A stretch of 64,000 nt of DNA from assembly GCF_016026235.1 (NCBI RefSeq), contig NZ_CP065613.1; one strand, written 5' to 3'. Source of the DNA: Escherichia coli (lineage in GTDB: Bacteria; Pseudomonadota; Gammaproteobacteria; Enterobacterales; Enterobacteriaceae). Positions 29,048 through 60,731 of the stretch are shown here, in pieces. The translations under genes and the position numbers were made by a program. The notes under the pieces were generated by a model. That model saw only the letters and a program-made list of their open reading frames with translations, had not been told where the DNA came from and made no database searches. Position 1 is the first letter of the stretch. Every line of letters begins with the position of its first letter.

Positions 29048-29083
29048 GCCTGATGCGACGCTGACGCGTCTTATCAGGCCTAC
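29048..29083. repeat. REP (repetitive extragenic palindrome) element
   Basis: GCCTGATGCGACGCTGACGCGTCTTATCAGGCCTAC, a canonical enterobacterial REP palindrome. Confidence 0.7.
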
Positions 29084-29172: not shown

Positions 29173-29249
<77 letters not shown>

Positions 29250-39848: not shown

Positions 39849-40547
39849 TTAAAATCTGGCACTAACCCCCATCGTATACAGATAATCGCTATTGTTAGTG
39901 GTATTTTCTGCCTGAGATAGCGCGGCATAGGCGGCAATATTTTGATTGAGCAACATATCAGCGCCTACGGTGACATCCAGCCAGTTGCCGTTCTGGTTTG
40001 TCGCCGTCATCCGGCTCAGGCCTGATTGCGCCTTCCAGATATTCTCGCCAAATTGCTGGTTATAGCTGATTTGCGCCCAGGGTCGGAGATCGCCAAGCCG
40101 GGAGTCAACACGCCAGCCTAAGGTACTCACGCTGGCATGCCATAACGGATCGGTCAGCGTGGTAGTACTGTCGCCAAACTCGTTATACATCGAGGTGGTT
40201 GTGCCATCGTAATGTAATGCCGCGACCGGGCCAGTTGTAACCTGTTCATATAAAGGAAAATTCCAGCCCATACTCATACTGCTGGTCACATCCACAGGGG
40301 TTTCTTCCGCCAGATTGACTTCCAGTCCCAGCGCCCTTTGGCTACTTTGAATACGTTGCGACAAAATATCGTTGTAATCAGGTTGATGATCACTATCCCA
40401 GGTGTAACGCTCTGTGGAATGCCCGGGTTGCGTATCAACGATATATTCTTGTTGCCAGGCGTAAGCTGTGTTGAGAAAAAAGGCACTGATTACCACACTC
40501 GCCAGCAGGCTTAGCTGCCAGCGACCACCGCTTTTTTTTATGATCAT
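39849..40547 (-). CDS. yhjY: Putative outer-membrane protein / lipase-like autotransporter beta-domain protein
   Basis: ORF track starts at a GTG (40553); the first ATG is at 40545-40547 (MIIKKSGGRWQ...). Signal peptide; C-terminal F. Matches YhjY. Confidence 0.8.
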   Translation of the reverse strand: MIIKKSGGRWQLSLLASVVISAFFLNTAYAWQQEYIVDTQPGHSTERYTWDSDHQPDYNDILSQRIQSSQRALGLEVNLAEETPVDVTSSMSMGWNFPLYEQVTTGPVAALHYDGTTTSMYNEFGDSTTTLTDPLWHASVSTLGWRVDSRLGDLRPWAQISYNQQFGENIWKAQSGLSRMTATNQNGNWLDVTVGADMLLNQNIAAYAALSQAENTTNNSDYLYTMGVSARF

Positions 40548-40704
40548 TAACACGACTCCAGGGAAGAGCCGAATTCGGCAATATTATTGTCATTGTATGA
40601 AGGATATCGGGCATAGTAGCCCTGTATTAAATATTGACTTTTTCACCGATGCGTCAAGAAAAGCGGCTGAAATTTTTACGATCGGGTACATAGCGAGGGA
40701 AAGT

Positions 40705-41268
40705 ATGGAACGTTGCGGCTGGGTGAGTCAGGACCCGCTTTATATTGCCTACCATGATAATGAGTGGGGCGTGCCTGAAACTGACAGTAAAAAACTGTTC
40801 GAAATGATCTGCCTGGAAGGGCAGCAGGCTGGGTTATCGTGGATCACCGTCCTCAAAAAACGCGAAAACTATCGCGCCTGCTTTCATCAGTTCGATCCGG
40901 TGAAGGTTGCCGCAATGCAGGAAGAGGATGTCGAAAGACTGGTACAGGACGCCGGGATTATCCGCCATCGCGGGAAAATTCAGGCAATTATTGGTAATGC
41001 GCGGGCGTACCTGCAAATGGAACAGAACGGCGAACCGTTTGCCGACTTTGTCTGGTCGTTTGTAAATCATCAGCCACAGGTGACACAAGCCACAACGTTG
41101 AGCGAAATCCCCACATCTACGCCCGCCTCCGACGCCCTATCTAAGGCACTGAAAAAACGTGGTTTTAAGTTTGTCGGTACCACAATCTGTTACTCCTTTA
41201 TGCAGGCATGTGGGCTGGTGAATGATCATGTGGTTGGCTGCTGTTGCTATCCGGGAAATAAACCATGA
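40705..41268 (+). CDS. tag: 3-methyladenine DNA glycosylase I
   Basis: ORF track gives 266 aa; trimmed to the MERCGWVSQDPLYIAYHDNEWG start (ATG verified at 40705) gives 187 aa, matching Tag. Confidence 0.92.
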   Translation: MERCGWVSQDPLYIAYHDNEWGVPETDSKKLFEMICLEGQQAGLSWITVLKKRENYRACFHQFDPVKVAAMQEEDVERLVQDAGIIRHRGKIQAIIGNARAYLQMEQNGEPFADFVWSFVNHQPQVTQATTLSEIPTSTPASDALSKALKKRGFKFVGTTICYSFMQACGLVNDHVVGCCCYPGNKP

Positions 41269-41705
41269 TTAGGGAAGCGCAACGTTCAGAACTCCCCGCG
41301 ATCCTCGAACTGTGGCTGGAAAGTACAACCTGGGGCCATCCCTTTATAAAAGCGAATTACTGGCGCGAGTGCATTCCACTGGTGCGGGATGCCTATCTTG
41401 CCAACGCACAAAACTGGGTCTGGGAAGAAGACAGTAAGCTTCTCGGTTTTGTCAGCATTATGGAAGGCCGATTTCTGGCAGCGATGTTTGTCGCACCGAA
41501 GGCCGTCAGGCGCGGTATTGGTAAGGCGCTGATGCAGTATGTGCAACAGCGCCATCCCCATCTGATGCTGGAGGTTTATCAAAAAAATCAACCGGCGATA
41601 GATTTTTACCAGGCGCAGGGTTTTCACATTGTCGATTGCGCATGGCAGGATGAAACCCAACTACCCACCTGGATTATGAGCTGGCCGGTGGTTCAAACGC
41701 TGTAA
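41265..41705 (+). CDS. yiaC: GNAT-family N-acetyltransferase
   Basis: 146-aa ORF overlapping the tag stop by 4 nt; matches YiaC. Confidence 0.88.
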
Positions 41706-44007
41706 GTGTCAGTTCCGGGCCGTTGTATTTTTCTAGCCATGCCAGCGCCGTATTACCCGCACAGCCATTCCCCAGCCGCGAGCTGGGGAGATCTTTGGTC
41801 AGCACGTTCACTGCGCCGTTTTTACAAATACCGTCAGCGGTTAAATCCAGATCCGGCCATGCCCCTTCGTGAATGCAAATCACGCCAGGTTTAATTCCCT
41901 CGCTAATGACCGCTCCGGCAAGAATTTGCCCGCGTGAGTTCCACAGCCGAACAGTATCGCCATCTTGTATGCCGCGCGCCTGGGCATCGTCAGGATGAAT
42001 GGTGACAGGCTCACGGTTTGCCACCGCGTACAATTCGCGCAGAGAACTGTAATTCAGCTGGCTGTGCAGACGATGCGCCGGATGAGCAGAAAGTACCTGT
42101 AACTGTTCCGGTTCGGCATTGCCCTGCCATTCGTCCGGCACCAGCCACATTGGATGCCCCGGGCAATCCGGATAAGCGTAATCGGCAATACGCTGCGAGA
42201 AGATTTCAATCTTACCGCTGGCGGTTTTTAATGGATGCGCCTGCGGATCGCGGCAAAAATCAGCGAAGCGAATAAACCGCTCGCTGTCCGGGTTTTCCGG
42301 CATCTCAATTAACTGATTGGCTTGCCAGAACTCAGCAAATGGCGGCAATTCAACCTGCTGGCTTGCCCCGCGCTGTCGGGCAACGTTATAAAACGTTTCC
42401 AGCCATTGCAGCTCACTTTTTCCTTCCGTAAAACGTGCATAACCGCCCTTCTCCCAGCGTTCACTTAACTCGGCAAAAACATCAAAATCATTACGCGCTT
42501 CATAGCGTGGCGGCACCACTTGCTTCATCGGCACCAGATGCTGATTACTGTAATCACCGGTCATGGTGAGATCATTACGCTCAAAAGAGGTAGTCGCAGG
42601 CAGAACGATATCCGCGTGTTTTGCCGCCGCCGTCCAGAAGCATTCAGAGATCACCACCAGCTCCGGTTTTTGCCAGGCACGGATCAGGCGATTGGTATCC
42701 TGATGATGAGTAAAGTTGGCACCGCCCGCCCACCAGATAAAACGAATATCCGGGAAATGTCGGTTCATACCGTTGTGTTGATATGCGCCACCAGGGTTTT
42801 CCAGTGCTTCAACAATGCGGGCGACAGGGATTTTATCTACCGCATCGCAGCCACCCGGCAAGCTGCCCTGCATGGAAGAGAGTACCGCAGCGCGCCGCGT
42901 GGGGTTACCACCATTGGCAAAATGGTAAGAAAGACCAAAACCGCCGCCGGGTGTGCCGATTTGCCCCAACATTGCTGCCAGCGTGACGATCATCCAGTGT
43001 TTTTGCTCACCAAACTGTTGGCGCTGCATTCCCCAGCCTGCCATCAGCATGGTGGTATTTTGGTGGAAAATAGCCGCCAGCTCGCGGATTTTCGCTGCGC
43101 CAACACCACAAATCTCTGCCGCCCATTCGGCGTTTTTCGCTATTCCGTCACTCTCGCCCAGCAAATAAGAGGCGAAGACGGCATAACCTGTGGTGCAACG
43201 CGCCAGAAACGCTTCGTCGTGCCAACCATTTTCCACCAGCGTATGGGCGATCCCCAGCATCAGCGCAACATCGGTGCCCATGTGCGGTGCCACCCACTCC
43301 ATTTTATCGCCAAAGAAATCGACGGTTTCCGATCGCATTGGATCAATGCAGATCAGCTTTTTCCCGCTGTCCCGCAGTGCAGAAAAGTAAGAAAGCCCCT
43401 GCTCATCGGATGCATTCCACGCAATTTTCAGCGTATTGAGTGGGTTAGCACTCCACAGCACCACGACATCGCTATGTTCCAGCACCAGCGGCCAACTGGT
43501 CTGCTGTTGATAAACTTCACTACCACCCACGACATACGGCATGATCGCCTGTGCCGCGCCGGTCGAATAATCCCCCAGATGCCCGGTATAACCGCCTGCC
43601 AGCGCCATATAGCGTTGTAATAATGTCGAGGCCTTATGCAGCACGCCGTTTGAACGCCAGCCGTAGGAACCAGCAAAAATCGATGCCGGACCATAAGCCT
43701 CACGAATGCGTTTATGTTGTTGGTGAATAAGATCCAGCGCCTCATCCCAACTCACGCGAACAAATTCATCCTGCCCACGAATGCCTTGCGGGTTTTCCGG
43801 TGACGCGAGAAAGCCTTTGCGCACCATTGGAAATCGTACCCGCGTATTGCTGTGAACCTGGTCGCGAACCGCGCTCTGCAAGGAGTTTTCCATTCCTGTG
43901 GCTAACGCGCCACGCGAGCTAAACACGGTTTCGCCGTCGGTTTCAACCAGCATGGGCCCCCAATGGGCGGCAGTCAGAACGGAATATCGTGAGGATGAGT
44001 TGGCCAA
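41674..44007 (-). CDS. bisC: Biotin sulfoxide reductase (molybdopterin oxidoreductase)
   Basis: 777-aa ORF matching BisC; its 3' end overlaps yiaC convergently by 32 bp. Confidence 0.93.
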
Positions 44008-44159
44008 ACCGAAGACTCCTGAAAGGTTAGATGTATTGAGCAGTTAAATATTACTTACAAATTTCCGAGTATTCCCAGGAATAATCTTCATGTTCACGCG
44101 GCATAATCTCCCGCCACGGAACCCGTGGCAAAGAATAAAAAGGTTATTAAGGATTAACA

Positions 44160-44819
44160 ATGAAGAAACGTGTTTATCTTATTGCCGCCGTAGTGAGTGG
44201 CGCTCTGGCGGTATCTGGCTGCACAACTAACCCTTACACCGGCGAACGCGAAGCAGGTAAATCTGCTATCGGCGCAGGTCTGGGCTCTCTCGTGGGCGCG
44301 GGTATTGGTGCGCTCTCTTCTTCGAAGAAAGATCGCGGTAAAGGCGCGCTGATTGGCGCAGCAGCAGGCGCAGCTCTGGGCGGCGGCGTTGGTTATTACA
44401 TGGATGTGCAGGAAGCGAAGCTGCGTGACAAAATGCGCGGCACTGGTGTTAGCGTAACCCGCAGCGGGGATAACATTATCCTCAATATGCCGAACAACGT
44501 GACCTTCGACAGCAGCAGCGCGACCCTGAAACCTGCGGGCGCTAACACCCTGACCGGCGTGGCAATGGTGCTGAAAGAGTATCCGAAAACGGCGGTTAAC
44601 GTGATTGGTTATACCGACAGCACGGGTGGTCACGACCTGAACATGCGTCTCTCCCAGCAACGTGCGGATTCCGTTGCCAGCGCGTTGATCACCCAGGGCG
44701 TGGACGCCAGCCGCATCCGTACTCAGGGCCTTGGCCCGGCTAACCCAATCGCCAGCAACAGCACCGCAGAAGGTAAGGCGCAAAACCGCCGTGTAGAAAT
44801 TACCTTAAGCCCGCTGTAA
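44160..44819 (+). CDS. yiaD: OmpA-family outer-membrane lipoprotein
   Basis: 219-aa ORF with a lipoprotein signal (LAVSGC), a glycine-zipper region and a C-terminal OmpA-like domain; matches YiaD. Confidence 0.9.
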   Translation: MKKRVYLIAAVVSGALAVSGCTTNPYTGEREAGKSAIGAGLGSLVGAGIGALSSSKKDRGKGALIGAAAGAALGGGVGYYMDVQEAKLRDKMRGTGVSVTRSGDNIILNMPNNVTFDSSSATLKPAGANTLTGVAMVLKEYPKTAVNVIGYTDSTGGHDLNMRLSQQRADSVASALITQGVDASRIRTQGLGPANPIASNSTAEGKAQNRRVEITLSPL

Positions 44820-44922
44820 TCCCTTTCATGCCAGGTGATGCAGAAATCACCTGGCATTCTTCAGTTTTCCTTCATCATATTTCAGGCTAAGGTGATCGCC
44901 TTATCAGTGAATGGAGAGAAGC

Positions 44923-45897
44923 ATGAAGCCGTCCGTTATCCTCTACAAAGCCTTACCTGATGATTTACTGCAACGCCTGCAAGAGCATTTCACCGTTCAC
45001 CAGGTGGCAAACCTCAGCCCACAAACCGTCGAACAAAATGCAGCAATTTTTGCCGAAGCTGAAGGTTTACTGGGTTCAAACGAGAATGTAGATGCCGCAT
45101 TGCTGGAAAAAATGCCGAAACTGCGTGCCACATCAACGATCTCCGTCGGCTATGACAATTTTGATGTCGATGCGCTTACCGCCCGAAAAATTCTGCTGAT
45201 GCACACGCCAACCGTATTAACAGAAACCGTCGCCGATACGCTGATGGCGCTGGTGTTGTCTACCGCTCGTCGGGTTGTGGAGGTAGCAGAACGGGTAAAA
45301 GCAGGCGAATGGACCGCGAGCATAGGCCCGGACTGGTACGGCACTGACGTTCACCATAAAACACTGGGCATTGTCGGGATGGGACGGATCGGCATGGCGC
45401 TGGCACAACGTGCGCACTTTGGCTTCAACATGCCCATCCTCTATAACGCGCGCCGCCACCATAAAGAAGCAGAAGAACGCTTCAACGCCCGCTACTGCGA
45501 TTTGGATACTCTGTTACAAGAGTCAGATTTCGTTTGCCTGATCCTGCCGTTAACTGATGAGACGCATCATCTGTTTGGCGCAGAACAATTCGCCAAAATG
45601 AAATCCTCCGCCATTTTCATTAATGCCGGACGTGGCCCGGTGGTTGACGAAAATGCACTGATCGCAGCATTGCAGAAAGGGGAAATTCACGCCGCCGGGC
45701 TGGATGTCTTCGAACAAGAGCCACTGTCCGTAGATTCGCCGTTGCTCTCAATGGCCAACGTCGTCGCAGTACCGCATATTGGATCTGCCACCCATGAGAC
45801 GCGTTATGGCATGGCCGCCTGTGCCGTGGATAATTTGATTGATGCGTTACAAGGAAAGGTTGAGAAGAACTGTGTGAATCCGCACGTCGCGGACTAA
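44923..45897 (+). CDS. ghrB: Glyoxylate/hydroxypyruvate reductase B (2-ketoaldonate reductase)
   Basis: ORF track starts at 44911; trimmed to the MKPSVILYK start (ATG verified at 44923) gives 324 aa. NAD-binding GxGxxG (GIVGMGRIG) present. Confidence 0.92.
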
Positions 45898-45916
45898 GCC
45901 GCGACTGCGTGGAGTA

Positions 45917-45945
45917 AAGCCCGATAATCGCTCGGGCTTTTACTC
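45917..45945. terminator. Putative bidirectional terminator between ghrB and yiaF
   Basis: Hairpin AAAGCCCGA-taatcgc-TCGGGCTTT followed by a T-rich tract, between convergent genes. Confidence 0.5.
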
Positions 45946-45946
45946 T

Positions 45947-46657
45947 TTATTGGGTTGCAGTAACTGCTGTAGTCCAGGCCTGATTAAACGCCTGATGTTG
46001 TGCCGGTAATGGCGCAATCAGTTTGTTATATTCACTTGCCTGCTGTGAAGTCGGGAACTGGATGCCATTTGCTACAAAGCTCACCTGAGTACCTTGTTGG
46101 GCAATGTAGTCTCCAACCATCACCAGTTGTTGCGTGAAAGTTTGTGCCGCCGGAATCAACGGTTGCAATGCATCAGCTGGCGTCGTTACCACTTTGGTGA
46201 ATGCCTGATCAAAGACCGGTTTCAGGTCATCACTCTGTTTTAGCGCAGAGTGCGCAGCATCGGCCTGCAACTTCGCATTTTGCAGTTGTTGCGCCAGCAC
46301 ACCCAGCGAACCATTCATTTCACGCAGCGGACCGCTTTGCGTAACGTAATCCTGCGGTACGCGAATTGCGTTAACGCTGTCTACAACCGGGCGCAGACCG
46401 GAATCCATCGCCTGATTCACCTGCTGAGAATAACCATACAGAATCGCGTAATCAGAGACAAAAGGACCAAACTGTTTTTTCTGATCGGCAGTCAGGGTTG
46501 GTAGACGTTCACCGCTACGCATCACTGTATTCTGCAGGAAGTCGATAAACGCTTTACGCTGATCGCCTTCTTTATCAAAACACCCACTCAGGCTAACTAC
46601 CATTAATAACGCCGCAAGAGGCGCAAACCAGCGAGAGCAGGACTTTCCTGTCGCCAT
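45947..46657 (-). CDS. yiaF: Putative lipoprotein
   Basis: ORF track gives 276 aa; trimmed to the MATGKSCSRWFAPLAALLMVVSLSGC start (ATG verified at 46655-46657) gives 236 aa, matching YiaF. Confidence 0.85.
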   Translation of the reverse strand: MATGKSCSRWFAPLAALLMVVSLSGCFDKEGDQRKAFIDFLQNTVMRSGERLPTLTADQKKQFGPFVSDYAILYGYSQQVNQAMDSGLRPVVDSVNAIRVPQDYVTQSGPLREMNGSLGVLAQQLQNAKLQADAAHSALKQSDDLKPVFDQAFTKVVTTPADALQPLIPAAQTFTQQLVMVGDYIAQQGTQVSFVANGIQFPTSQQASEYNKLIAPLPAQHQAFNQAWTTAVTATQ

Positions 46658-47090
46658 TTTCTTACTCCTTTCACCCAAAAAAAGCGCACAACGACACACG
46701 CGTGTCTGACGTGACAAGGATAGTCCAGGACAGGCTTGCAGGATACCCTTTCTACGTAATCTTCCTGGTAAAATCATGGAGAAAATGAAACAAGGTTAAT
46801 TTGTTGTTTCATTGTTAAAAAATGATATTGCCGTTGCCTTTTTTGTAGCCCGAGATTTACGCCTTCGCAGAACGTTAGATTTTCGAAATCTTTACAAACC
46901 GGGAGTGGTAAGAAATATATCGGCATTTATCAGATCGTTAGGTGGCTATAAGTCACGCTAAATGACTGGCTGAATCGAATCATAGCCAGAGCATGCCCTG
47001 ACTTCACCCCGCTGTGTCTGCTTTTCCCGACTATTCTTAATGAGCTTCGATGCAATTCACGATCCCGCAGTGTGATTTGAGGAGTTTTCA

Positions 47091-47381
47091 ATGGAATATA
47101 AAGATCCAATGCATGAGCTGTTGAGCAGCCTGGAACAGATTGTTTTTAAAGATGAAACGCAGAAAATTACCCTGACGCACAGAACAACGTCCTGTACCGA
47201 AATTGAGCAGTTACGAAAAGGGACAGGGTTAAAAATCGATGATTTCGCCCGGGTTTTGGGCGTATCAGTCGCCATGGTAAAGGAATGGGAATCCAGACGC
47301 GTGAAGCCTTCAAGTGCCGAACTAAAATTGATGCGTTTGATTCAAGCCAACCCGGCATTAAGTAAGCAGTTGATGGAATAG
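47091..47381 (+). CDS. yiaG: HTH (XRE-like) transcriptional regulator
   Basis: 96-aa ORF matching YiaG. Confidence 0.85.
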   Translation: MEYKDPMHELLSSLEQIVFKDETQKITLTHRTTSCTEIEQLRKGTGLKIDDFARVLGVSVAMVKEWESRRVKPSSAELKLMRLIQANPALSKQLME

Positions 47382-47465
47382 ACTTTTATCCACTTTATTG
47401 CTGTTTACGGTCCTGATGACAGGACCGTTTTCCAACCGATTAATCATAAATATGAAAAATAATTG

Positions 47466-47494
47466 TTGCATCACCCGCCAATGCGTGGCTTAAT
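47466..47494 (+). promoter_or_regulatory. cspA promoter (-35 TTGCAT, 17-bp spacer, -10 CTTAAT)
   Basis: Hexamers with canonical spacing, positioned so that transcription would start near 47503, which gives the known 159-nt cspA leader. Confidence 0.6.
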
Positions 47495-47502
47495 GCACAT
47501 CA

Positions 47503-47661
47503 ACGGTTTGACGTACAGACCATTAAAGCAGTGTAGTAAGGCAAGTCCCTTCAAGAGTTATCGTTGATACCCCTCGTAGTGCACATTCCTTTAACGCTTC
47601 AAAATCTGTAAAGCACGCCATATCGCCGAAAGGCACACTTAATTATTAAAGGTAATACACT
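47503..47661 (+). promoter_or_regulatory. cspA 159-nt 5' UTR (cold-box / RNA thermosensor leader)
   Basis: The sequence from ACGGTTTGACGTACAGACC to the ATG matches the cspA leader I recall, including the cold-box motif TGACGTACAGA; the ATG lies exactly 159 nt downstream. Confidence 0.75.
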
Positions 47662-47874
47662 ATGTCCGGTAAAATGACTGGTATCGTAAAATGGTTCAAC
47701 GCTGACAAAGGCTTCGGCTTCATCACTCCTGACGATGGCTCTAAAGACGTGTTCGTACACTTCTCTGCTATCCAGAACGATGGTTACAAATCTCTGGACG
47801 AAGGTCAGAAAGTGTCCTTCACCATCGAAAGCGGCGCTAAAGGCCCGGCAGCTGGTAACGTAACCAGCCTGTAA
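47662..47874 (+). CDS. cspA: Major cold-shock protein CspA
   Basis: 70-aa [73 protein letters not shown], which matches CspA as I recall it. Confidence 0.97.
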
Positions 47875-47901
47875 TCTCTGCTTAAAAGCACAGAATCTAA
47901 G

Positions 47902-47931
47902 ATCCCTGCCATTTGGCGGGGATTTTTTTAT
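47902..47931 (+). terminator. cspA rho-independent terminator
   Basis: Hairpin ATCCCTGCC-ATTT-GGCGGGGAT (one G·U pair) followed by TTTTTTTA. Confidence 0.7.
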
Positions 47932-48061
47932 TTGTTTTTCAGGAAATAAATAATCGATCGCGTAATAAAATCTAGTATTATTTTTGTGAAAAATAAATTT
48001 GGGTGCAATGAGAATGCGCAACGCCGTAAGAAAGGCGGGAATAACTTCCCGCCGAAGACTC

Positions 48062-48214
48062 TTACTCTTTTAAATTGCAGGCTAAAAATGCCGCCAGCTC
48101 ATAACTCCCCTGTTTAATATGCAATTCACACAGTGAATCTCTTATCATCCAGGTGAAAAATAAAAGCGTGAAACAAATCACTATTAAAGAAAGTAATCTA
48201 TATTTCTGCGGCAT
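48062..48214 (-). CDS. hokA: Hok-family type I toxin (HokA)
   Basis: 50-aa peptide MPQKYRLLSLIVICFTLLFFTWMIRDSLCELHIKQGSYELAAFLACNLKE (ATG verified at 48212-48214); the ORF-track 70-aa entry is an in-frame upstream extension. No IS element nearby. Confidence 0.85.
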   Translation of the reverse strand: MPQKYRLLSLIVICFTLLFFTWMIRDSLCELHIKQGSYELAAFLACNLKE

Positions 48215-48502
48215 TCCCAGCCCCCTGTGTTGATTTCCAACGAGTAAGAGGCTAACCTTATGGTGTTCAGGCATAGGGTAGCCTCACTTTGATTTATAGT
48301 CAGGTGGGGCTTTTCTCTGTCTGCCTTTCGGTGAATACCTGAGACAAACAGTCTCAAGCACCCGTGGCTATTCTAGCTTAATAAGTTTGTTTCTTCTCCT
48401 TGATATAATCCTAAAAAAACCTCATAAAATTAATATATGAGATAATCTTTATTCAGCAGAAGATTATTAAAGGTTGCTGTATTATTTAGCGATAATAAAA
48501 AA

Positions 48503-48527
48503 AGCCTGCCAGATGGCAGGCTTTTTA
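48503..48527. terminator. glyS rho-independent terminator (bidirectional hairpin)
   Basis: AGCCTGCC-AGAT-GGCAGGCT flanked by A-run and T-run, 13-20 bp downstream of the glyS stop. Confidence 0.7.
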
Positions 48528-48539
48528 ATAACGGCGTTA

Positions 48540-50609
48540 TTACTGCAACAGCGAAATATCCGCAACGCGCAGGAACAGTTCGCGCAGTTTCTCCAGCATG
48601 GTCAGACGGTTGATACGCAATTCTTTGTCATCAACCATTACCATCACTTTATCGAAGAAAGCATCAACCGGTTCACGCAGCTCAGCCAGTTCGACCAGCG
48701 CATCCTGGTAACGACCTTCCGCAAAGTACGGCTCCAGCTTGTCACGTAGCACCACAACCTGCATCGCCAGTTTAATTTCTTCCGGCTCTTTCAGGGTAGA
48801 GGCATTCACGCGATCGCTCAGCACTTCGTCAGATTTCGCCAAAATGTTGGAGACACGCTTGTTCGCCGCCGCCAGTGCAGCAGCTGCTTCAAGGGTACGG
48901 AAGTGCGATACCGCTTTCATGCGGGCATCGAAATCAGCCGGACGAGTCGGACGACGCGCCAGTACCGCCTGGATGGTGTCAACGGTATAACCTTCGTCCT
49001 GATACCAGGCGCGGAAGCGACCGAGCATAAAGTCGATAACATCATCAACTACGTTGGCATTAGTCAGCTTATCGCCATACAGACGCACCGCTTCTTCGGT
49101 TAGCGTTTGCAGATCAAGGTTGAGGTTCTTCTCAACGATAATTCGCAGCACGCCAAGTGCGGCACGACGCAGCGCAAACGGGTCTTTGTCGCCTTTCGGA
49201 TGCTGACCGATACCGAAGATACCCGCCAGAGTATCCATCTTATCAGCAATCGCCAGCGCACAAGCTACCGGGTTGGACGGCAGGTCATCACCGGCAAAGC
49301 GCGGCTGATACTGCTCATTCAGCGCGACGGCTACGTCTTCCGCTTCGCCATCGTGACGCGCGTAGTGCATCCCCATAACGCCCTGGGTGTCGGTGAACTC
49401 GAAGACCATGTTGGTCATCAGGTCACACTTAGACAGCAGGCCCGCACGGGTTGCGTGGTTAACGTCAGCGCCAATCTGTTCGGCGATCCAGCCAGCCAGC
49501 GCCTGGATGCGGTCAGTCTTGTCACGCAGCGTACCCAGCTGTTGCTGGAACAGCACGGTTTGCAGGCGCGGCAGGTTATCTTCCAGACGTTTTTTGCGGT
49601 CGGTGTTGAAGAAGAACTCGGCATCAGCCAGACGTGGACGAACGACTTTCTCGTTACCAGAGATAATTTGCTGCGGATCTTTCGATTCGATGTTGGCAAC
49701 GAAGATAAAGTTCGGCAGCAGTTTGCCGTCGTTCGCATACACCGGGAAGTACTTCTGGTCACCTTTCATGGTGTAAACCAGGGCTTCAGCCGGCACCGCG
49801 AGGAATTTCTCTTCAAATTTCGCGGTTAGAACGACCGGCCACTCCACCAGCGAAGCCACTTCTTCCAGCAGGCTTTCGCTTAAGTCAGCGTTACCGCCAA
49901 TCTTACGCGCTGCTTCTTCGGCATCGGCTTTAATCTTCGCTTTACGTTCTTCGTAATCGGCGATGACTTTCCCGCGCTCACGCAGAATTTCCGGATACTG
50001 ATCGGCGTTGTCGATGGTGAATTCCGGTTCGCCCATAAAGCGGTGGCCGCGAATCACGCGATCGGACTGAATGCCCAGAATGGTTGCCGGAATGACTTTG
50101 TCGCCCAGCAGCAGGGTCACGGTGTGCACCGGACGCACGAAGTGCACGTCGCTTGCACCCCAGCGCATCAGTTTCGGAATCGGCAGTTTCGCCAGCGAAG
50201 TCGCAACCATATTCGGCAGCAGTGCTTCGGTGCTTTCGCCCTTCACGTGGGCGCGATACAGCAGCCATTCGCCTTTATCGGTAGTCAGACGCTCAGCCTG
50301 GTCAACGGTAATACCGCAACCACGCGCCCAACCTTCTGCCGCTTTGCTCGGTTTGCCTTCAGCGTCGAACGCCTGGGCAATCGCCGGGCCGCGTTTTTCG
50401 ATTTCACGATCCGGTTGCGCTTCCGCCAGGTTAGCTACTTTCAGCGCCAGACGACGCGGAGCAGCAAACCATTGAACGGTGCCGTGTGCGAGGCCTGCGT
50501 TATCCAGCTCCGCAGTAAAGTTCGCAGCAAAGGACTCTGCCAGGCTGCGCAGTGCTTTTGGTGGCAGCTCTTCAGTGCCGATTTCCACCAGAAAAGTTTT
50601 CTCAGACAT
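48540..50609 (-). CDS. glyS: Glycine--tRNA ligase beta subunit
   Basis: 689-aa ORF matching GlyS. Confidence 0.95.
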
Positions 50610-50618
50610 AGCCGCCTC

Positions 50619-51530
50619 TTACTTATCTTTGTTGCACATCGGGAAGCCGAGGGCTTCACGGGAAGCGTAATATGCTTCTGCCACTGCTTTGGTCAGGGTG
50701 CGAATGCGCAGAATGTAGCGCTGACGCTCGGTGACGGAGATGGCTTTACGCGCATCCAGCAGGTTGAAGCTGTGGGCGGCTTTCAGAATACGCTCGTAAG
50801 CTGGCAGCGGCAGCGGATTTTCCAGCGCCAGCAGCTGCTGCGCTTCTTTCTCGTACTGCTCAAAGCAGGTGAACAGGAAGTCCACATCCGCGTATTCGAA
50901 GTTGTAAGTGGACTGCTCCACTTCGTTCTGATGGAACACGTCGCCGTAGGTGGTTTTACCCAGCGGGCCGTCGCTCCAGACCAGGTCGTAAACGCTGTCT
51001 ACGCCCTGAATGTACATGGCCAGACGTTCCAGACCGTAGGTGATCTCGCCGGTAACCGGTTTACACTCCAGACCACCAACCTGCTGGAAGTAAGTGAACT
51101 GCGTCACTTCCATGCCGTTTAGCCACACTTCCCAGCCCAGTCCCCAGGCACCCAGCGTCGGGTTTTCCCAGTTATCTTCCACGAAACGGATATCGTGGAT
51201 AGTCGGGTCCATGCCCAGCTCTTTCAGAGAACCAAGGTACAGCTCCTGAATATTGTCCGGCGATGGCTTAATGACCACCTGGAACTGATAGTAGTGCTGT
51301 AAACGGTTGGGGTTTTCGCCGTAGCGACCATCGGTCGGGCGACGAGAAGGCTGAACATAAGCAGCCGCCATCGGTTCTGGCCCCAGCGCGCGCAGACAGG
51401 TCATTGGGTGAGAGGTTCCCGCGCCGACTTCCATGTCCAATGGTTGAACAATGGTGCAGCCCTGGCGAGCCCAGTAATCCTGTAAGGTCAGGATCAAGCC
51501 CTGGAAGGTCCTGGTATCAAACTTTTGCAT
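50619..51530 (-). CDS. glyQ: Glycine--tRNA ligase alpha subunit
   Basis: 303-aa ORF matching GlyQ; 9-bp spacer to glyS. Confidence 0.95.
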
Positions 51531-51624
51531 ATTATTTCGTGCTGGATACGTGTGGATTTAAAGGAAGGGATCAGTATACCCGCTGGATGGAAGATATACA
51601 GTACGAAACGTGAAAAAGCAGGGC

Positions 51625-51924
51625 TTAACGCATGGAAAGATGCAAAAAATGGCCATCTGCGTCAAAAGAACAGACAAACTGCTCTTTACGGAAGGTATAA
51701 CCGCGCATTTCATAGCTTCCCTGGAACTGTTCGAAGGCGGTGACGTCGATTTTTTGCTCGCCGGTGTTATAACGTTTTGCCGCCTGATCCTTGCATAACG
51801 CTTCCATATTCAACGAACGCAGAGGATCAACCTTTACCCGTTGTGCTTTCTGCACGGGTGACGGTGTAGAACAACCCACTAGCACCATAAGCGCCATTGC
51901 CGGAAAGAAAGAGTTCATCATCAT
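51625..51924 (-). CDS. ysaB: Putative lipoprotein
   Basis: ORF track gives 110 aa; trimmed to MMMNSFFPAMALMVLVGC (ATG verified at 51922-51924) gives 99 aa with a lipobox. Confidence 0.8.
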   Translation of the reverse strand: MMMNSFFPAMALMVLVGCSTPSPVQKAQRVKVDPLRSLNMEALCKDQAAKRYNTGEQKIDVTAFEQFQGSYEMRGYTFRKEQFVCSFDADGHFLHLSMR

Positions 51925-52098
51925 TAAATTACCGTCTGGTTTGCAGGTGAGTCTCATTATTTATATCGGTATAGTGGCTGATATCTTACGAATTTCCTTA
52001 AGCCTCTATAAGCTGTAGTGTTAAAACTCAGATTATTCCAGTGCGCCAACTGAATGATTTATCGGTCAGACTTTTTTTAACCAGATACAGAGACACAG

Positions 52099-53094
52099 AT
52101 GCAGCCCAAAATTTACTGGATTGATAACCTGCGAGGGATAGCGTGTTTAATGGTGGTGATGATTCACACCACTACCTGGTATGTGACCAATGCTCATAGT
52201 GTTAGCCCCGTCACCTGGGATATCGCCAATGTTCTGAACTCTGCCTCTCGTGTCAGCGTGCCGCTATTTTTCATGATTTCCGGCTATCTCTTTTTTGGCG
52301 AACGCAGCGCCCAGCCGCGCCATTTCTTGCGTATCGGCTTATGTCTGTTTTTTTATAGCGCAATCGCGCTGCTCTACATTGCACTGTTTACCTCCATTAA
52401 TGTGGAGTTAGCGCTGAAAAACCTGCTGCAAAAGCCAGTGTTTTACCACTTATGGTTTTTCTTCGCGATTGCGGTGATTTATCTGGTTTCACCGCTGATT
52501 CAGGTGAAGAACGTCGGCGAAAAAATGTTGCTGGTGCTAATGGTGGTGATTGGTATCATCGCTAACCCAAACACCGTGCCGCAGAAAATCGACGGTTTTG
52601 AATGGCTGCCAATTAACTTATATATCAATGGCGATACTTTTTACTACATTCTGTATGGCATGTTGGGCCGCGCTATAGGGATGATGGACACACAGCATAA
52701 AGCACTGTCGTGGGTGAGCGCCGCACTGTTTGCGACGGGAGTTTTTATTATCTCTCGCGGGACATTATATGAATTGCAGTGGCGCGGAAATTTTGCCGAT
52801 ACCTGGTATCTTTACTGTGGGCCGATGGTTTTTATCTGCGCAATCGCGCTATTGACTCTGGTTAAAAACACGCTGGATACGCGTACCATTCGCGGACTTG
52901 GCTTAATCTCCCGCCATTCGTTGGGTATATACGGATTCCACGCCTTGATTATCCATGCGCTGCGCACCCGGGGAATTGAGCTTAAAAATTGGCCAATACT
53001 GGATATTATTTGGATTTTTTGCGCGACGTTGGCAGCGAGTTTGTTACTTTCTATGCTGGTACAACGAATCGACAGAAACAGATTAGTGAGTTAA
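52099..53094 (+). CDS. wecH: O-acetyltransferase (acyltransferase-3 family, inner membrane)
   Basis: 331-aa multi-pass ORF matching WecH (YiaH). Confidence 0.88.
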
Positions 53095-53100
53095 GTAAAA

Positions 53101-53126
53101 GCCCGGTCACATTGGACTGACCGGGC
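53101..53126. terminator. Putative bidirectional terminator between wecH and yiaA
   Basis: Hairpin GCCCGGTCA-cattggac-TGACCGGGC between convergent genes; T-run on the minus-strand side. Confidence 0.45.
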
Positions 53127-53135
53127 TTACGTGAG

Positions 53136-53576
53136 TTATTCGCTGTATTCTTCCTGGGTAACCTGTGTTTCTTTTGGTGGGTTTATTCCGGCATCACGAA
53201 TATTTTTCTGCACCGCTACTGCACCAAACAAGCTTAAGAAGAAAGCCAGTCCATAAAAACCTTTTTCGCTGAGTAATAATGTCGCATTCCACAGACCTAC
53301 CATCAGTAATGCAACAGAGATAATAAAGACAGTCAGGCAGGTCATATAATAAATGGAAGTGGTCGGTATGCCTTCATACTTGTCCCGAACGGTCTTTTGA
53401 TAAGACGCCGCAGAAAACAGTCCTAATACCAGTACGGCAAAATAATATCCTTTTTCATTTAACTGCATCTCTGCATTCCATAGCCCTAACAGATAGGTAA
53501 CGATACCACCAACGAGAGCTATCCATGACACAATACTAAAGGCCGGTGAATAGGTTGATATTTTGTTGTCCATCAC
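53136..53576 (-). CDS. yiaA: Inner-membrane protein (YiaA/YiaB family)
   Basis: 146-aa ORF with four predicted TM segments; matches YiaA. The start may be the second Met. Confidence 0.85.
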
Positions 53577-53952
53577 AGTATTCCTTTCATTCCTGAATGT
53601 GTAAGAGCTTTATGTTGCTCATACCGAGCGAAACAAACGCATTTGACCAAACAAGCAGACAAAAAAGGCGATGGGGTAGATCACCATTTCATAAGCATTG
53701 ATAGGTGCATTTAAAACACCGATAAACAAGAGACCGATAGTGATTAACGCAACTAACTGGCAAATATGGGTAAAAAAATTATCCAGTTGCCCGAGTTTTT
53801 CTGCGCGAAGATATGCATAGTTGCCAAAAGTTGCTGTCATTAACACGCCAAGAAAATAGCCTTTTCCACTCAACAATGGGCATGAGATCCATAGCCCGGT
53901 AATGCTGCCAACTTACTGATTTAGTGTATGATGGTGATTTTAAGGTGCTTGC

Positions 53953-54228
53953 GTGGCTTCCATTTCCATCAGATGTCCTTCCTGCTCCGCTACTGAAGGC
54001 GTGGTGCGTAACGGCAAAAGCACTGCCGGACATCAGCGCTATCTCTGCTCTCATTGCCGTAAAACATGGCAACTACAGTTCACTTACACCGCCTCTCAGC
54101 CCGGTACGCACCAGAAAATCATTGATATGGCCATGAATGGCGTCGGATGTCGCGCCAGTGCACGCATTATGGGCGTTGGCCTCAACACGGTTTTACGTCA
54201 CTTAAAAAACTCAGGCCGCAGTCGGTAA
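53953..54228 (+). CDS. insA: IS1 InsA (transposition inhibitor / N-terminal part of the InsAB' transposase)
   Basis: 91-aa [46 protein letters not shown]..., matching IS1 InsA. Confidence 0.92.
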
Positions 54229-54650
54229 CCTCGCGCATACAACCGGGCAGTGATGTGATTGTCTGCGCTGAAATGGACGAACAGTGGGGCTACGTCGGTG
54301 CTAAATCACGTCAGCGCTGGCTGTTTTACGCGTATGACAGGATACGGAGGACGGTTGTGGCGCACGTCTTCGGTGAACGCACTCTGGCCACACTGGAGCG
54401 TCTTCTGAGCCTGCTGTCGGCCTTTGAGGTCGTGGTATGGATGACGGATGGCTGGCCGCTGTATGAATCACGCCTGAAGGGAAAGCTGCACGTTATCAGC
54501 AAGCGTTACACTCAGCGCATTGAGCGACATAATCTGAATCTGAGACAACATCTGGCAAGGCTGGGACGGAAGTCACTGTCGTTCTCAAAATCGGTGGAGC
54601 TGCATGACAAGGTCATCGGGCATTATCTGAACATAAAACACTATCAGTAA
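54147..54650 (+). CDS. insB: IS1 InsB frame (expressed as the InsAB' transposase by -1 frameshift)
   Basis: 167-aa ORF in the -1 frame relative to insA, containing the IS1 transposase catalytic region; coordinates are the ORF-track frame, not a verified initiation site. Confidence 0.85.
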
Positions 54651-54905
54651 GTTGGAGTCATTACCCCATAGCCCAACCAGATAAACCAGCGCCCCGACAA
54701 CAAATAATAGTTTTGCCACAGTCTTTGAGGTTTTCATAACGATCTCCATATCTACCAGCGATACATTACGAGTAACCAACGAAAGACAAAACTGAAAAAT
54801 GCCATTAACAAATGATTTTCAGAATAAATTCATACTAAATATTAATTAATTACTGAGATATATAGATGTGAATTATCCCCCACCCGGTCAGGCAGGGGAT
54901 AACGT

Positions 54906-56360
54906 TTACGCCATTAATGGCAGAAGTTGCTGATAGAGGCGACGGAACGTTTCTCGTCGTGGCTGATAAGCGGCATAACGCTGCGCATCTGGTAGATGCG
55001 ACTGTTCTAACGGTAGCTGCGGCAACAACTCAATGAGCGATTTCTCTGGATTCGCCGCAATCTGCGCCAGCCTTGCTGCGCCCAGTGCTGGCCCCACATC
55101 CCCCCCCGTACGGTAATCGAGCTGCTGACCGCTGATATCCGCCAGCATCTGACGCCAGTACTCACTACGCGCACCGCCACCAATCAACGTAACACTTTGC
55201 GGTTTAATGCCGCAGGCATGCACGACATCCATGCCATCTGCCAGCGCATAACCCACGCCTTCCAGCACTGCTCGCGCCAGTTCATTGGGGCCATGTTGAT
55301 GAGTCAAACCAAAGAAAACCCCTTTCGCCTGGGGATTATTGTGTGGTGTACGCTCGCCGGAAAGATAAGGCAGAAACCAAACTGGCTCGGCACTTTCATC
55401 AGCCTGTTGAGCTGCAGCGATTAAAGCTGGGACATTGCTCAGGCCGGTTAATTTCGCGGCCCAATCCAGACACGACGCTGCACTCAGCATTACAGACATT
55501 AAATGCCAACGCTGCGGTAGCGCATGGCAAAAGCTGTGTACGGCGCTTTCTGGCTTGCTTAAGAACCCTTCGCTGACAGCAAAATAGACCCCCGACGTCC
55601 CCAGCGATAACATTGCCTGATTAGCATCAACCATTCCCACACCAACTGCACCAGCTGCATTGTCGCCACCGCCTGCGACAACTGGCACCGTCGCCATACC
55701 CCACGCTTTCGCAACTTCAGGTAACAAAGCACCAGTAATTTCGCTGCCTTCGTATAATGCGGGCATCTGGTCACGAGATAAGTCGCAAGCCTGCAGCATG
55801 ACGTCACTCCAGTCACGCTTTGCGACATCCAGCCACATGGTGCCAGCTGCGTCAGACATATCGCTGGCAAACTCCCCCGTCATACGCAGACGCAAGTAAT
55901 CTTTCGGTAATAATACTTTGTCGATTTGACGGAATATCTCCGGCTCATGCCGCTGAACCCATAGCAATTTAGGCGCAGTAAATCCGGGCATCATCAGGTT
56001 GCCGGTAATCACCCGCGATAGCGGAACTCGCGCTTCCAGCAAAGCGCACTCTTGCGCACAGCGCCCGTCGTTCCACAAAATGGCAGGGCGCAAGACCCGT
56101 TGTTGAGCATCCAGTAAGGTTGCTCCGTGCATCTGGCCGGCAATACCCAATGCTTTAACGTCCTGCAGAGAATGCTGATCGCCCAGAGCTTTCATTGCGC
56201 GATCAGTTGCCTGCCACCACTGTTCCGGGTCTTGTTCCGACCAGAGTGGATGCGGGCGCGAAACGGTTAGCTTTTCCGTTTGCGAAGCAACCACCTCACC
56301 CTGCTCGTTGAGCAAAATAACTTTTACGCCCGAGGTGCCAAGATCTATCCCGATATACAT
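54906..56360 (-). CDS. xylB: Xylulokinase
   Basis: 484-aa ORF matching XylB (FGGY kinase). Confidence 0.95.
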   Translation of the reverse strand: MYIGIDLGTSGVKVILLNEQGEVVASQTEKLTVSRPHPLWSEQDPEQWWQATDRAMKALGDQHSLQDVKALGIAGQMHGATLLDAQQRVLRPAILWNDGRCAQECALLEARVPLSRVITGNLMMPGFTAPKLLWVQRHEPEIFRQIDKVLLPKDYLRLRMTGEFASDMSDAAGTMWLDVAKRDWSDVMLQACDLSRDQMPALYEGSEITGALLPEVAKAWGMATVPVVAGGGDNAAGAVGVGMVDANQAMLSLGTSGVYFAVSEGFLSKPESAVHSFCHALPQRWHLMSVMLSAASCLDWAAKLTGLSNVPALIAAAQQADESAEPVWFLPYLSGERTPHNNPQAKGVFFGLTHQHGPNELARAVLEGVGYALADGMDVVHACGIKPQSVTLIGGGARSEYWRQMLADISGQQLDYRTGGDVGPALGAARLAQIAANPEKSLIELLPQLPLEQSHLPDAQRYAAYQPRRETFRRLYQQLLPLMA

Positions 56361-56431
56361 ATCGATCGTTCCTTAAAAAAATGCCCGGTATCGCTACCGA
56401 TAACCGGGCCAACGGACTGCACAGTTAGCCG

Positions 56432-57754
56432 TTATTTGTCGAACAGATAATGATTTACCAGATTTTCCAGTTGCTCCTGGCGACCACTCTGATGCACCGG
56501 AGACAAATTATGTTCCTGAGCATATTTGGCTAAATCTGCCAGTGACATTTGGCCTTTCAGGATTTGCTGGCCTAATTCGCTATTCCAGCCGGAATAACGC
56601 TGCGCGATGCGTTTATCCAGCTCGCCATCTTCAATCATGCGCGCTGCAATTTTCAGCGCCAGTGCCATCGTATCCATCGCGCCGATATGACCGTAAAACA
56701 GATCATATTTATCAGTACTTTGACGACGTACTTTGGCATCGAAGTTCAGACCACCGGTGGTGAAACCGCCTGCTTTGAGAATTTCATACATCACCAGCGC
56801 ATTCTCTTCCACACTGTTCGGGAACTGGTCGGTGTCCCAGCCCAGTTGCGCATCGCCACGGTTGGCGTCGACAGAACCGAACAGGCCAAGCGCAATGGCA
56901 GTGGCTATTTCATGATGGAAAGAGTGACCTGCCAGCGTCGCGTGGTTAGCTTCAATGTTCAGTTTAATCTCTTTTTCCAGACCAAACTGTTTCAGGAAGC
57001 CATAGACCGTCGCGGCATCGTAATCATATTGATGTTTGGTCGGTTCTTGCGGTTTCGGTTCGATAAGCAACGTGCCCTGGAAACCGATTTTATGTTTATG
57101 CTCAACCACCATCTGCATAAAGCGGCCCAGTTGTTCACGCTCCTGACGCAAGTCGGTATTTAACAGCGTTTCGTAACCTTCACGACCGCCCCACAGGACA
57201 TAGTTTTCACCGCCCAATTTATGGGTTGCTTCCATCGCTGTAACAACTTGCGTTGCCGCCCAGCTGAAGACTTCAGGATCTGGGTTCGTCGCCGCACCCG
57301 CGCCGTAGCGAGGGTTTGTAAAGCAGTTGGCGGTTCCCCACAGCAGCTTCACGCCGCTCTCTTCTTGCTTGCCTGCCAGGACATCAACCATTTGCGCAAA
57401 ATTATTGATGTACTCTTTTAACGACGCGCCCTCAGGGGAAACATCCACATCGTGGAAGCAATAAAATGGCACATGTAACTTGTGGAAAAACTCAAATGCG
57501 ACATCTGCTTTACGCTTCGCCAACGCCAGTGCCTCACCAGGCTGCTGCCACGGACGATTAAACGCCCCCACACCAAACATATCCGCCCCGTTCCAGCAGA
57601 AGGTGTGCCAGTAGCAGGCGGCAAATCGCAAGTGCTCTTCCATACGCTTACCCAACACCAGTTCGTCGGGATTGTAGTGACGGAATGCTAACGGGTTTGA
57701 GGATTTTGAGCCTTCATAACGAACGCGATCGAGCTGGTCAAAATAGGCTTGCAT
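56432..57754 (-). CDS. xylA: Xylose isomerase
   Basis: ORF track gives 444 aa; trimmed to the [15 protein letters not shown] start (ATG verified at 57752-57754) gives 440 aa, matching XylA. Confidence 0.95.
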
Positions 57755-58119
57755 ATTGAACTCCATAATCAGGTAATGCCGCGGGTGATGGATGATGTCG
57801 TAATATTGGGCACTCCCTTTCAGTTGCTCAATTATGTTATTTCACACTGCTATTGAGATAATTCACAAGTGTGCGCTCGCTCGCAAAATAAAATGGGATG
57901 ATGAAACTGGGTAATTCCTCGAAGAGAAAAATGCAATAAGTACAATTGCGCAACAAAAGTAAGATCTCGGTCATAAATCAAGAAATAAACCAAAAATCGT
58001 AATCGAAAGATAAAAATCTGTAATTGTTTTCCCCTGTTTAGTTGCTAAAAATTGGTTACGTTTATCGCGGTGATTGTTACTTATTAAAGCTGTCCTCTAA
58101 CTACAGAAGGCCCTACACC
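57755..58119. promoter_or_regulatory. Divergent xylAB / xylFGHR control region (expected XylR and CRP operator sites)
   Basis: 365-bp AT-rich intergenic region between divergent xylA and xylF. Assignment rests on the known regulation of the xyl regulon; individual sites not resolved. Confidence 0.5.
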
Positions 58120-59112
58120 ATGAAAATAAAGAACATTCTACTCACCCTTTGCACCTCACTTCTGCTTACCAACGTTGCGGCACACGCCAAAGAAGTCAAA
58201 ATAGGTATGGCGATTGATGATCTCCGTCTTGAACGCTGGCAAAAAGATCGAGATATCTTTGTGAAAAAGGCAGAATCTCTCGGCGCGAAAGTATTTGTAC
58301 AGTCTGCAAATGGCAATGAAGAAACACAAATGTCGCAGATTGAAAACATGATAAACCGGGGTGTCGATGTTCTTGTCATTATTCCGTATAACGGTCAGGT
58401 ATTAAGTAACGTTGTAAAAGAAGCCAAACAAGAAGGCATTAAAGTATTAGCTTACGACCGTATGATTAACGATGCGGATATCGATTTTTATATTTCTTTC
58501 GATAACGAAAAAGTCGGTGAACTGCAGGCAAAAGCCCTGGTCGATATTGTTCCGCAAGGTAATTACTTCCTGATGGGCGGCTCGCCGGTAGATAACAACG
58601 CTAAGCTGTTCCGCGCCGGACAAATGAAAGTGTTACAACCTTACGTTGATTCCGGAAAAATTAAAGTCGTTGGTGACCAATGGGTTGATGGCTGGTTACC
58701 GGAAAACGCATTGAAAATTATGGAAAACGCGCTAACCGCCAATAATAACAAAATTGATGCTGTAGTTGCCTCAAACGATGCCACCGCAGGTGGGGCAATT
58801 CAGGCATTAAGCGCGCAAGGTTTATCAGGGAAAGTAGCAATTTCCGGCCAGGATGCGGATCTCGCAGGTATTAAACGTATTGCTGCCGGTACGCAAACTA
58901 TGACGGTGTATAAACCTATTACATTGCTGGCAAATACTGCCGCAGAAATTGCCGTTGAGTTGGGCAATGGTCAGGAACCAAAAGCAGATACCACACTGAA
59001 TAATGGCCTGAAAGATGTTCCCTCCCGCCTCCTGACACCGATCGATGTGAATAAAAACAACATCAAAGATACGGTAATTAAAGACGGATTCCACAAAGAG
59101 AGCGAGCTGTAA
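58120..59112 (+). CDS. xylF: D-xylose ABC transporter periplasmic binding protein
   Basis: ORF track gives 356 aa; trimmed to MKIKNILLTLCTSLLLTNVAAHA (ATG verified at 58120) gives 330 aa, matching XylF. Confidence 0.94.
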   Translation: MKIKNILLTLCTSLLLTNVAAHAKEVKIGMAIDDLRLERWQKDRDIFVKKAESLGAKVFVQSANGNEETQMSQIENMINRGVDVLVIIPYNGQVLSNVVKEAKQEGIKVLAYDRMINDADIDFYISFDNEKVGELQAKALVDIVPQGNYFLMGGSPVDNNAKLFRAGQMKVLQPYVDSGKIKVVGDQWVDGWLPENALKIMENALTANNNKIDAVVASNDATAGGAIQALSAQGLSGKVAISGQDADLAGIKRIAAGTQTMTVYKPITLLANTAAEIAVELGNGQEPKADTTLNNGLKDVPSRLLTPIDVNKNNIKDTVIKDGFHKESEL

Positions 59113-59189
59113 GCGTTACGCCCCGGCGCGGAGCGGGGGCGTGATTTCTCTCCATGCCGCGTGAATGAATTGGCTTAGGTGGAGTCGTT

Positions 59190-60731
59190 ATGCCTTATCT
59201 ACTTGAAATGAAGAACATTACCAAAACCTTCGGCAGTGTGAAGGCGATTGATAACGTCAGCTTGCGGTTGAATGCTGGCGAAATCGTCTCACTCTGTGGG
59301 GAAAATGGGTCTGGTAAATCAACGCTGATGAAAGTGCTGTGTGGTATTTATCCCCATGGCTCCTACGAAGGCGAAATTATTTTTGCGGGAGAAGAGATTC
59401 AGGCGAGTCACATCCGCGATACCGAACGCAAAGGTATCGCCATCATTCACCAGGAATTGGCCCTGGTGAAAGAATTGACCGTGCTGGAAAATATCTTCCT
59501 GGGTAACGAAATAACCCACAATGGCATTATGGATTATGACCTGATGACGCTACGCTGTCAGAAGCTGCTCGCACAGGTCAGTTTATCCATTTCACCTGAT
59601 ACCCGCGTTGGCGATTTAGGGCTTGGGCAACAACAACTGGTTGAAATTGCCAAGGCACTTAATAAACAGGTGCGCTTGTTAATTCTCGATGAACCGACAG
59701 CCTCATTAACTGAGCAGGAAACGTCGGTTTTACTGGATATTATTCGCGATCTACAACAGCACGGTATCGCCTGTATTTATATTTCGCACAAACTCAACGA
59801 AGTCAAAGCGATTTCCGATACGATTTGCGTTATTCGCGACGGACAGCACATTGGTACGCGTGATGCTGCCGGAATGAGTGAAGACGATATTATCACCATG
59901 ATGGTCGGGCGAGAGTTAACCGCGCTTTACCCTAATGAACCACATACCACCGGAGATGAAATATTACGTATTGAACATCTGACGGCATGGCATCCGGTTA
60001 ATCGTCATATTAAACGAGTTAATGATGTCTCGTTTTCCCTGAAACGTGGCGAAATACTGGGTATTGCCGGACTCGTTGGTGCCGGACGTACCGAGACCAT
60101 TCAGTGCCTGTTTGGTGTGTGGCCCGGACAATGGGAAGGAAAAATTTATATTGATGGCAAACAGGTAGATATTCGTAACTGTCAGCAAGCCATCGCCCAG
60201 GGGATTGCGATGGTCCCCGAAGACAGAAAGCGCGACGGCATCGTTCCGGTAATGGCGGTTGGTAAAAATATTACCCTCGCCGCACTCAATAAATTTACCG
60301 GTGGCATTAGCCAGCTTGATGACGCGGCAGAGCAAAAATGTATTCTGGAATCAATCCAGCAACTCAAAGTTAAAACGTCGTCCCCCGACCTTGCTATTGG
60401 ACGTTTGAGCGGCGGCAATCAGCAAAAAGCGATCCTCGCTCGCTGTCTGTTACTTAACCCGCGCATTCTCATTCTTGATGAACCCACCAGGGGTATCGAT
60501 ATTGGCGCGAAATACGAGATCTACAAATTAATTAACCAACTCGTCCAGCAGGGTATTGCCGTTATTGTCATCTCTTCTGAATTACCTGAAGTGCTCGGCC
60601 TTAGCGATCGTGTACTAGTGATGCATGAAGGGAAACTAAAAGCCAACCTGATAAATCATAACCTGACTCAGGAGCAGGTGATGGAAGCCGCATTGAGGAG
60701 CGAACATCATGTCGAAAAGCAATCCGTCTGA
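59190..60731 (+). CDS. xylG: D-xylose ABC transporter ATP-binding protein (tandem ABC domains)
   Basis: 513-aa ORF with two Walker A / ABC-signature sets (GENGSGKST ... LSGGNQQK); matches XylG. Confidence 0.94.

Follow-up and report, generated by a model that had tools for sequence, protein, structure and literature searches.

A known cspA cold-shock unit of Escherichia coli, traced from promoter to terminator

The window analysed here is a stretch of 64,000 nucleotides of Escherichia coli DNA. We put the probability at about 99% that positions 47466-47931 of it are the standard chromosomal cspA cold-shock gene of this species, with all of its known control elements, and no observation speaks against this identification. 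The unit is a textbook case, already known, and it adds nothing new to biology. It matters only as a control: a complete known regulatory unit could be recognised, and its parts placed to the base, from raw sequence. The earlier note on this DNA had recorded it as a positive control, and that use is valid, as the unit is identical to K-12 bar one silent base.

The locus was aligned to that of K-12 MG1655 (NC_000913.3), as the earlier note had proposed. No base differs in the promoter, in the leader of 159 nt, in the 3' UTR or in the terminator, so that the divergence of the leader is zero, and there is no mismatch from the yiaG stop through the promoter and 5' UTR (47381-47661). The CspA protein is identical to K-12 NP_418012.1 at 70/70 residues. 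The sole difference within the unit is one synonymous change in the ORF, at 47748 (+), where the base is C here and T in K-12 (GAC vs GAT, the third position of Asp29). The elements of K-12 cspA (b3556) are otherwise the same here: promoter, UP region, leader, cold box, upstream box, Shine-Dalgarno, downstream box, protein, 3' UTR, terminator and gene order. Sequence identity, anatomy, family match and conservation are in this sense observed directly.

The family match was made with the Rfam model RF01766 (cspA thermoregulator), a covariance model that takes in both sequence and structure. It matches 47502-47929 with 501 bits (E = 3e-142), well beyond what chance would give, where the gathering score is 78 bits, and the match covers model positions 1-428 of 428 with no non-canonical pairs flagged. 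This match already settles membership in the cspA thermoregulator family. A long 5' UTR with a cold box defines the leaders of cold-inducible csp genes (PMC6719143), and the unit has a 159-nt UTR (about 145-160 nt in the group), a cold box near the 5' end and a downstream box immediately past the start codon.

The product of the ORF carries a Pfam CSD domain (113.5 bits, E = 4e-33), scores 172 bits on the NCBIfam CspA model NF007679 (cut-off 130), and has the CspA chains 2L15 and 1MJC as its top PDB matches. The name in the databases is another matter. Most RefSeq (PGAP) records call the identical sequence [quoted passage not shown] (e.g. L002 3283-3495), and the protein does reach 124 bits on the CspE equivalog NF049933, whose cut-off is 120. 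Taken at face value, these names would make the unit cspE, a constitutive antiterminator gene with a short leader and without a thermosensor. However, the curated K-12 record names the identical protein CspA, the CspA model scores much higher than the CspE model, the CspA chains lead the PDB matches, and a 159-nt leader that carries a cold box is the distinguishing mark of cold-inducible csp genes, whereas cspE lacks both the cold box and the downstream box (PMC6719143). On these four grounds the cspE identity was rejected as extremely improbable. Some of the matching records do carry the name cspA. The RefSeq name "cspE" is probably a systematic mislabel, an annotation artefact and not biology, and it probably arises because the barely passing "equivalog" NF049933 takes precedence over the "subfamily" model NF007679. 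Users of these annotations should be warned that most RefSeq E. coli genomes call cspA "cspE".

The survey of conservation covered 5426 complete E. coli genomes. The cspA unit has a match in 5422 of the 5426; of the 5423 matching records, 5410 reach 99% identity to it or more. Among the 5875 matching places, a single one is not chromosomal. The gene order around the unit, yiaF-yiaG-cspA-hokA/sokA-glyS, as read from ORFs, Pfam domains and annotation, is that of K-12 and of other E. coli including strain E2865. This context bears on whether the unit could be an engineered cspA cassette, such as a fragment of a pCold-type vector, in place of the native locus. Cold-inducible vectors widely use the cspA promoter and leader (PMC9800685), but here the unit has native flanks on both sides, with yiaG upstream and, on the downstream side, ysaE, hokA/sokA and glyS; its CspA ORF and its terminator are the native ones, both unbroken, and 5874 of the 5875 matching places lie on chromosomes. 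A disrupted ORF, a missing terminator and a plasmid or vector context were looked for at the locus, and none was seen. The vector cassette, which we consider vanishingly improbable, was rejected on its flanks and context.

The core promoter lies on the plus strand, as do all parts of the unit given below. The earlier note had reported correctly spaced -35 and -10 hexamers, and the sequence and coordinate check agrees: the -35 is TTGCAT at 47466-47471, the 17-bp spacer is 47472-47488, and the -10 is CTTAAT at 47489-47494, with both hexamers identical to K-12. Within the spacer, one base upstream of the -10, is a TG at 47486-47487, which we take to be an extended -10. The hexamers are weak. They match the sigma-70 consensus at 3/6 (-35) and 4/6 (-10) positions, too few for the rule of a generic sigma-70 consensus scan, which passed over the cspA promoter. 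Upstream of the -35, at 47440-47465, is the AT-rich UP element region TTAATCATAAATATGAAAAATAATTG. These predicted sigma-70 features, the UP element, the TG and the 17-bp spacing, are all present and are kept in the paralogs. The identification of the hexamers as the cspA promoter is supported by identity with the experimentally mapped K-12 promoter and by conservation among the cold-inducible paralogs, not by consensus strength.

The earlier note had also called the unit complete from the promoter on. This holds for the stretch from core promoter to terminator; the control elements upstream of it had been omitted. The bounds given, 47466 and 47931, are the first base of the -35 and a position two bases beyond the T run of the terminator. 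The UP element is needed for cspA transcription according to Mitta et al. 1997 (cited in PMC6386945), and FIS and H-NS footprints on the cspA promoter extend from -90 to +20 (PMC4877382), which also describes a GC-rich discriminator between the -10 and +1. Because the UP element and the footprints reach upstream, the functional unit starts before 47466, roughly at 47413-47440. Just 3' of the yiaG stop is an inverted repeat, GGTCCTG-ATGA-CAGGACC followed by GTTTT (47408-47432), identical in K-12. The repeat probably serves to terminate yiaG transcription and would thereby shield the cspA promoter; with only 4 T in its tail, it was not listed by the terminator scan. YiaG itself, encoded directly upstream of cspA at 47091-47381 (+), has an HTH_3 domain and, as a separate observation, a sub-threshold resemblance to the MqsA antitoxin's C-terminal domain (26 bits, cut-off 30).

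The promoter and leader were aligned with the upstream regions of K-12 cspG, cspB and cspI, giving a mean column identity of about 70%. In the promoter, the positions invariant in all four are AAA.TAA at 47456-47462 (UP), TTGC at 47466-47469 (-35), TG at 47486-47487 and TTAAT at 47490-47494 (-10). In the leader they are GGTTTG at 47505-47510, which belongs to the leader's first hairpin and takes in the beginning of the cold box, and GCC.AA.GGC at 47625-47634. In the coding sequence they are the ATG and then AAAATGACTGGT (47671-47682). The longer motif GGTTTGA..ACAGAC is kept in the leaders of cspA, cspB and cspG (ACAGAC being common to cspB and cspG). As invariant blocks falling on named elements, these make up a phylogenetic footprint that supports the hexamers of the earlier note.

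The same alignment shows how alike the cold-inducible paralogs are. All three share with cspA an AT-rich upstream region, a TTGC -35, a TG-n-TTAAT -10, a long leader, the GCC.AA.GGC upstream box and the downstream box AAAATGACTGGT; the cold-box region is present in the cspB and cspG leaders but absent from that of cspI, as aligned here. With the architecture, the long leaders and several motifs in common, and with 128.6 bits for the protein on the NCBIfam CspG model, one could suppose that the unit is cspB, cspG or cspI. But the CspG score is below its cut-off of 144 while the CspA score of 172 is above its cut-off of 130, the 70% column identity with the paralogs compares with 0 leader differences from K-12 cspA, and the neighbours are yiaG and hokA/glyS, whereas cspB, cspG and cspI are found at other genomic loci (the Qin prophage and the cspH-cspG locus). 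The K-12 alignment and the gene order led us to reject a paralog identity, which has next to no probability, and the unit is read below as cspA.

The 5' untranslated leader runs from the A at +1 (47503) to 47661, which is 159 nt, as the earlier note had it. PMC6719143 puts the cspA 5' UTR, with its cold box, at 159 bases, and the Gualerzi/Giuliodori laboratory uses a 160-nt leader (PMC6386945). With the alternative +1 at 47502, where the Rfam model starts, the leader has 160 nt and the mRNA 428 nt. The cold box TGACGTACAGA, also claimed by the earlier note, is an exact match at 47509-47519 (+7 to +17), within the 5'-terminal hairpin of the leader. The Rfam consensus has it as its first hairpin, and so do all folds predicted for the full-length mRNA. 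Further down, at 47625-47637, GCCGAAAGGCACA forms a small GCC/GGC hairpin 5' of the Shine-Dalgarno that is paired in the Rfam consensus, and it is the "upstream box" (Yamanaka et al. 1999, cited in PMC6386945). The Shine-Dalgarno AAGG is at 47649-47652, 9 nt upstream of the ATG; its pairing partner, both in the Rfam consensus and in the folds predicted here, is CCUU (47588-47591).

The coding sequence occupies 47662-47874, with its ATG at 47662 and its TAA at 47872-47874, and encodes 70 amino acids, which bears out the 70-codon ORF of the earlier note. Inside it, at 47674-47687, is the downstream box ATGACTGGTATCGT, conserved in the paralogs. The terminator hairpin that had been claimed is likewise there: the terminator scan places a Rho-independent terminator at 47899-47929, with a 12-pair stem (47899-47926, 6 G-C) and a 4-nt loop. 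The run of seven T (47923-47929) is started by the last four bases of the stem, and three bases extend past it. The Rfam consensus, whose last position is 47929, also shows the terminator as paired, and the K-12 copy is identical.

The unit had also been called an RNA thermosensor. The cspA mRNA is indeed so described (PMC9947658, PMC6386945), with the correction that the sensor is the fold of the whole mRNA and not the leader alone. In these accounts the mRNA takes a cold form and a 37 deg C form. In the cold form the translation-initiation region is more accessible, 30S binding is about 2.5-fold better and translation is efficient. At 37 deg C the form is more closed, and the progress of the ribosome along it is aided by CspA (PMC9947658, PMC6386945). 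Temperature-dependent folding that alters ribosome access and translation has been shown experimentally for the identical K-12 sequence by Giuliodori et al. 2010, as summarised in PMC9947658. For the unit in the window, we take temperature-dependent folding, translation and stability from the literature or infer them.

The expected course of events would then be as follows. Transcription would start from the sigma-70 promoter, where the AT-rich UP element and the extended -10 TG may compensate for the weak hexamers, and would give a monocistronic mRNA of about 427-428 nt ending at the hairpin and T-run terminator. The whole transcript would fold according to temperature. From published experiments, the form made or folded in the cold should bind 30S better and be efficiently translated; that taken at 37 deg C should be more closed, less well translated and short-lived. 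A downshift in temperature would lead to strong accumulation of the 70-aa RNA chaperone CspA, which in turn would help ribosomes progress on the 37 deg C form. CspA would also exert feedback through the cold-box region.

This behaviour sets cspA apart from the zipper RNA thermometers such as ROSE and fourU. In both cases a cis-acting mRNA structure makes translation temperature-dependent. The zippers, however, are short hairpins that melt on warming and free the Shine-Dalgarno, whereas in cspA the whole transcript of roughly 428 nt takes alternative folds, and low temperature favours the more translatable of them (PMC9947658); mRNA stability contributes as well.

The cspA mRNA was folded with the nearest-neighbour model of ViennaRNA at temperatures between 10 and 42 deg C. 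The prediction is of two global folds of almost equal energy, set apart by long-range helices that join leader nt 26-70 to coding nt of about 190-270. Near 20 deg C they change places in stability, with a gap of only about 1 kcal/mol: the low-temperature fold is favoured by -0.7 kcal/mol at 10 deg C and disfavoured by +1.2 kcal/mol at 37 deg C. An opening of the Shine-Dalgarno and AUG in the cold was sought over the same 10-42 deg C range, and both stay paired with a probability of at least 0.98, in a helix with nt 74-93 that is predicted at every temperature. The folding is therefore weakly supportive: it is compatible with a temperature-sensitive fold, without reproducing the reported change in ribosome access. 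The ribosome-binding site is paired in both predicted folds, and the ribosome-access step rests on published probing and translation experiments. The caveat for in-silico work is that equilibrium folding alone fails to show the cold form with its ribosome-binding site exposed, as experiments describe it. The 5' fragments of 87, 137 and 187 nt are published co-transcriptional intermediates of cspA mRNA, and at 15 deg C their MFE folds have few pairs in common with either predicted fold of the full-length mRNA.

The C at 47748, the single base that differs from K-12, is the Rfam consensus base. The exact allele of the window occurs in about a third of genomes, as read from an evenly spaced ranking of the matches. 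It is conceivable that this Asp29 C/T polymorphism, which splits E. coli into roughly one third and two thirds and sits inside the structured coding part, subtly tunes the folding of the cold form or the binding of CspA. None of the predicted folds pairs this position, and between the structures of the C and T alleles the base-pair distance is 0 and the energies are about 0.5 kcal/mol apart. Because the predicted structures are the same for both alleles, such tuning is very unlikely.

Downstream of the unit, on the minus strand, is an intact hokA/mokA/sokA type I toxin-antitoxin locus at 48062-48400 (-), which encodes a 50-aa HokA (Pfam HOK_GEF) and is matched by the Rfam "sok" model, over its full length, at 48212-48363. 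An IS150 interrupts the K-12 copy of this locus and is lacking in the genome here; about 38 bp (roughly 48247-48285 here) are missing from the K-12 flanks at the point of insertion. Overlapping hokA in antisense is the small ORF ysaE, 48014-48073 (+), which has 19 aa here and 23 aa in K-12, being shorter because a CAA is TAA. In the RefSeq record of strain E2865 the 60-nt ysaE ORF is annotated as a hypothetical protein.

For the part of the window from 40000 to 60000, none of the 5426 complete E. coli genomes does better than 99.4% identity, and this best match comes in 5 pieces, unlike the cspA unit, which is 100% identical in many genomes. This suggests that the flanks of cspA come from a mosaic or less-sampled lineage. 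Repeated elements in 40000-60000 lead to a median of 10 matching places per genome.

Two further features were seen elsewhere in the window. Three tandem matches to the Rfam rdlD antitoxin RNA lie at 20051-21082 (+), about 483 bp apart, and suggest a triplicated ldr/rdl type I toxin-antitoxin array; K-12 presumably has a single ldrD/rdlD at the corresponding locus. A match to Rfam naRNA4, a REP-derived nucleoid-associated RNA, at 28999-29080 (+) adjoins a tRNA-Pro(CGG) at 29173-29249 (-).
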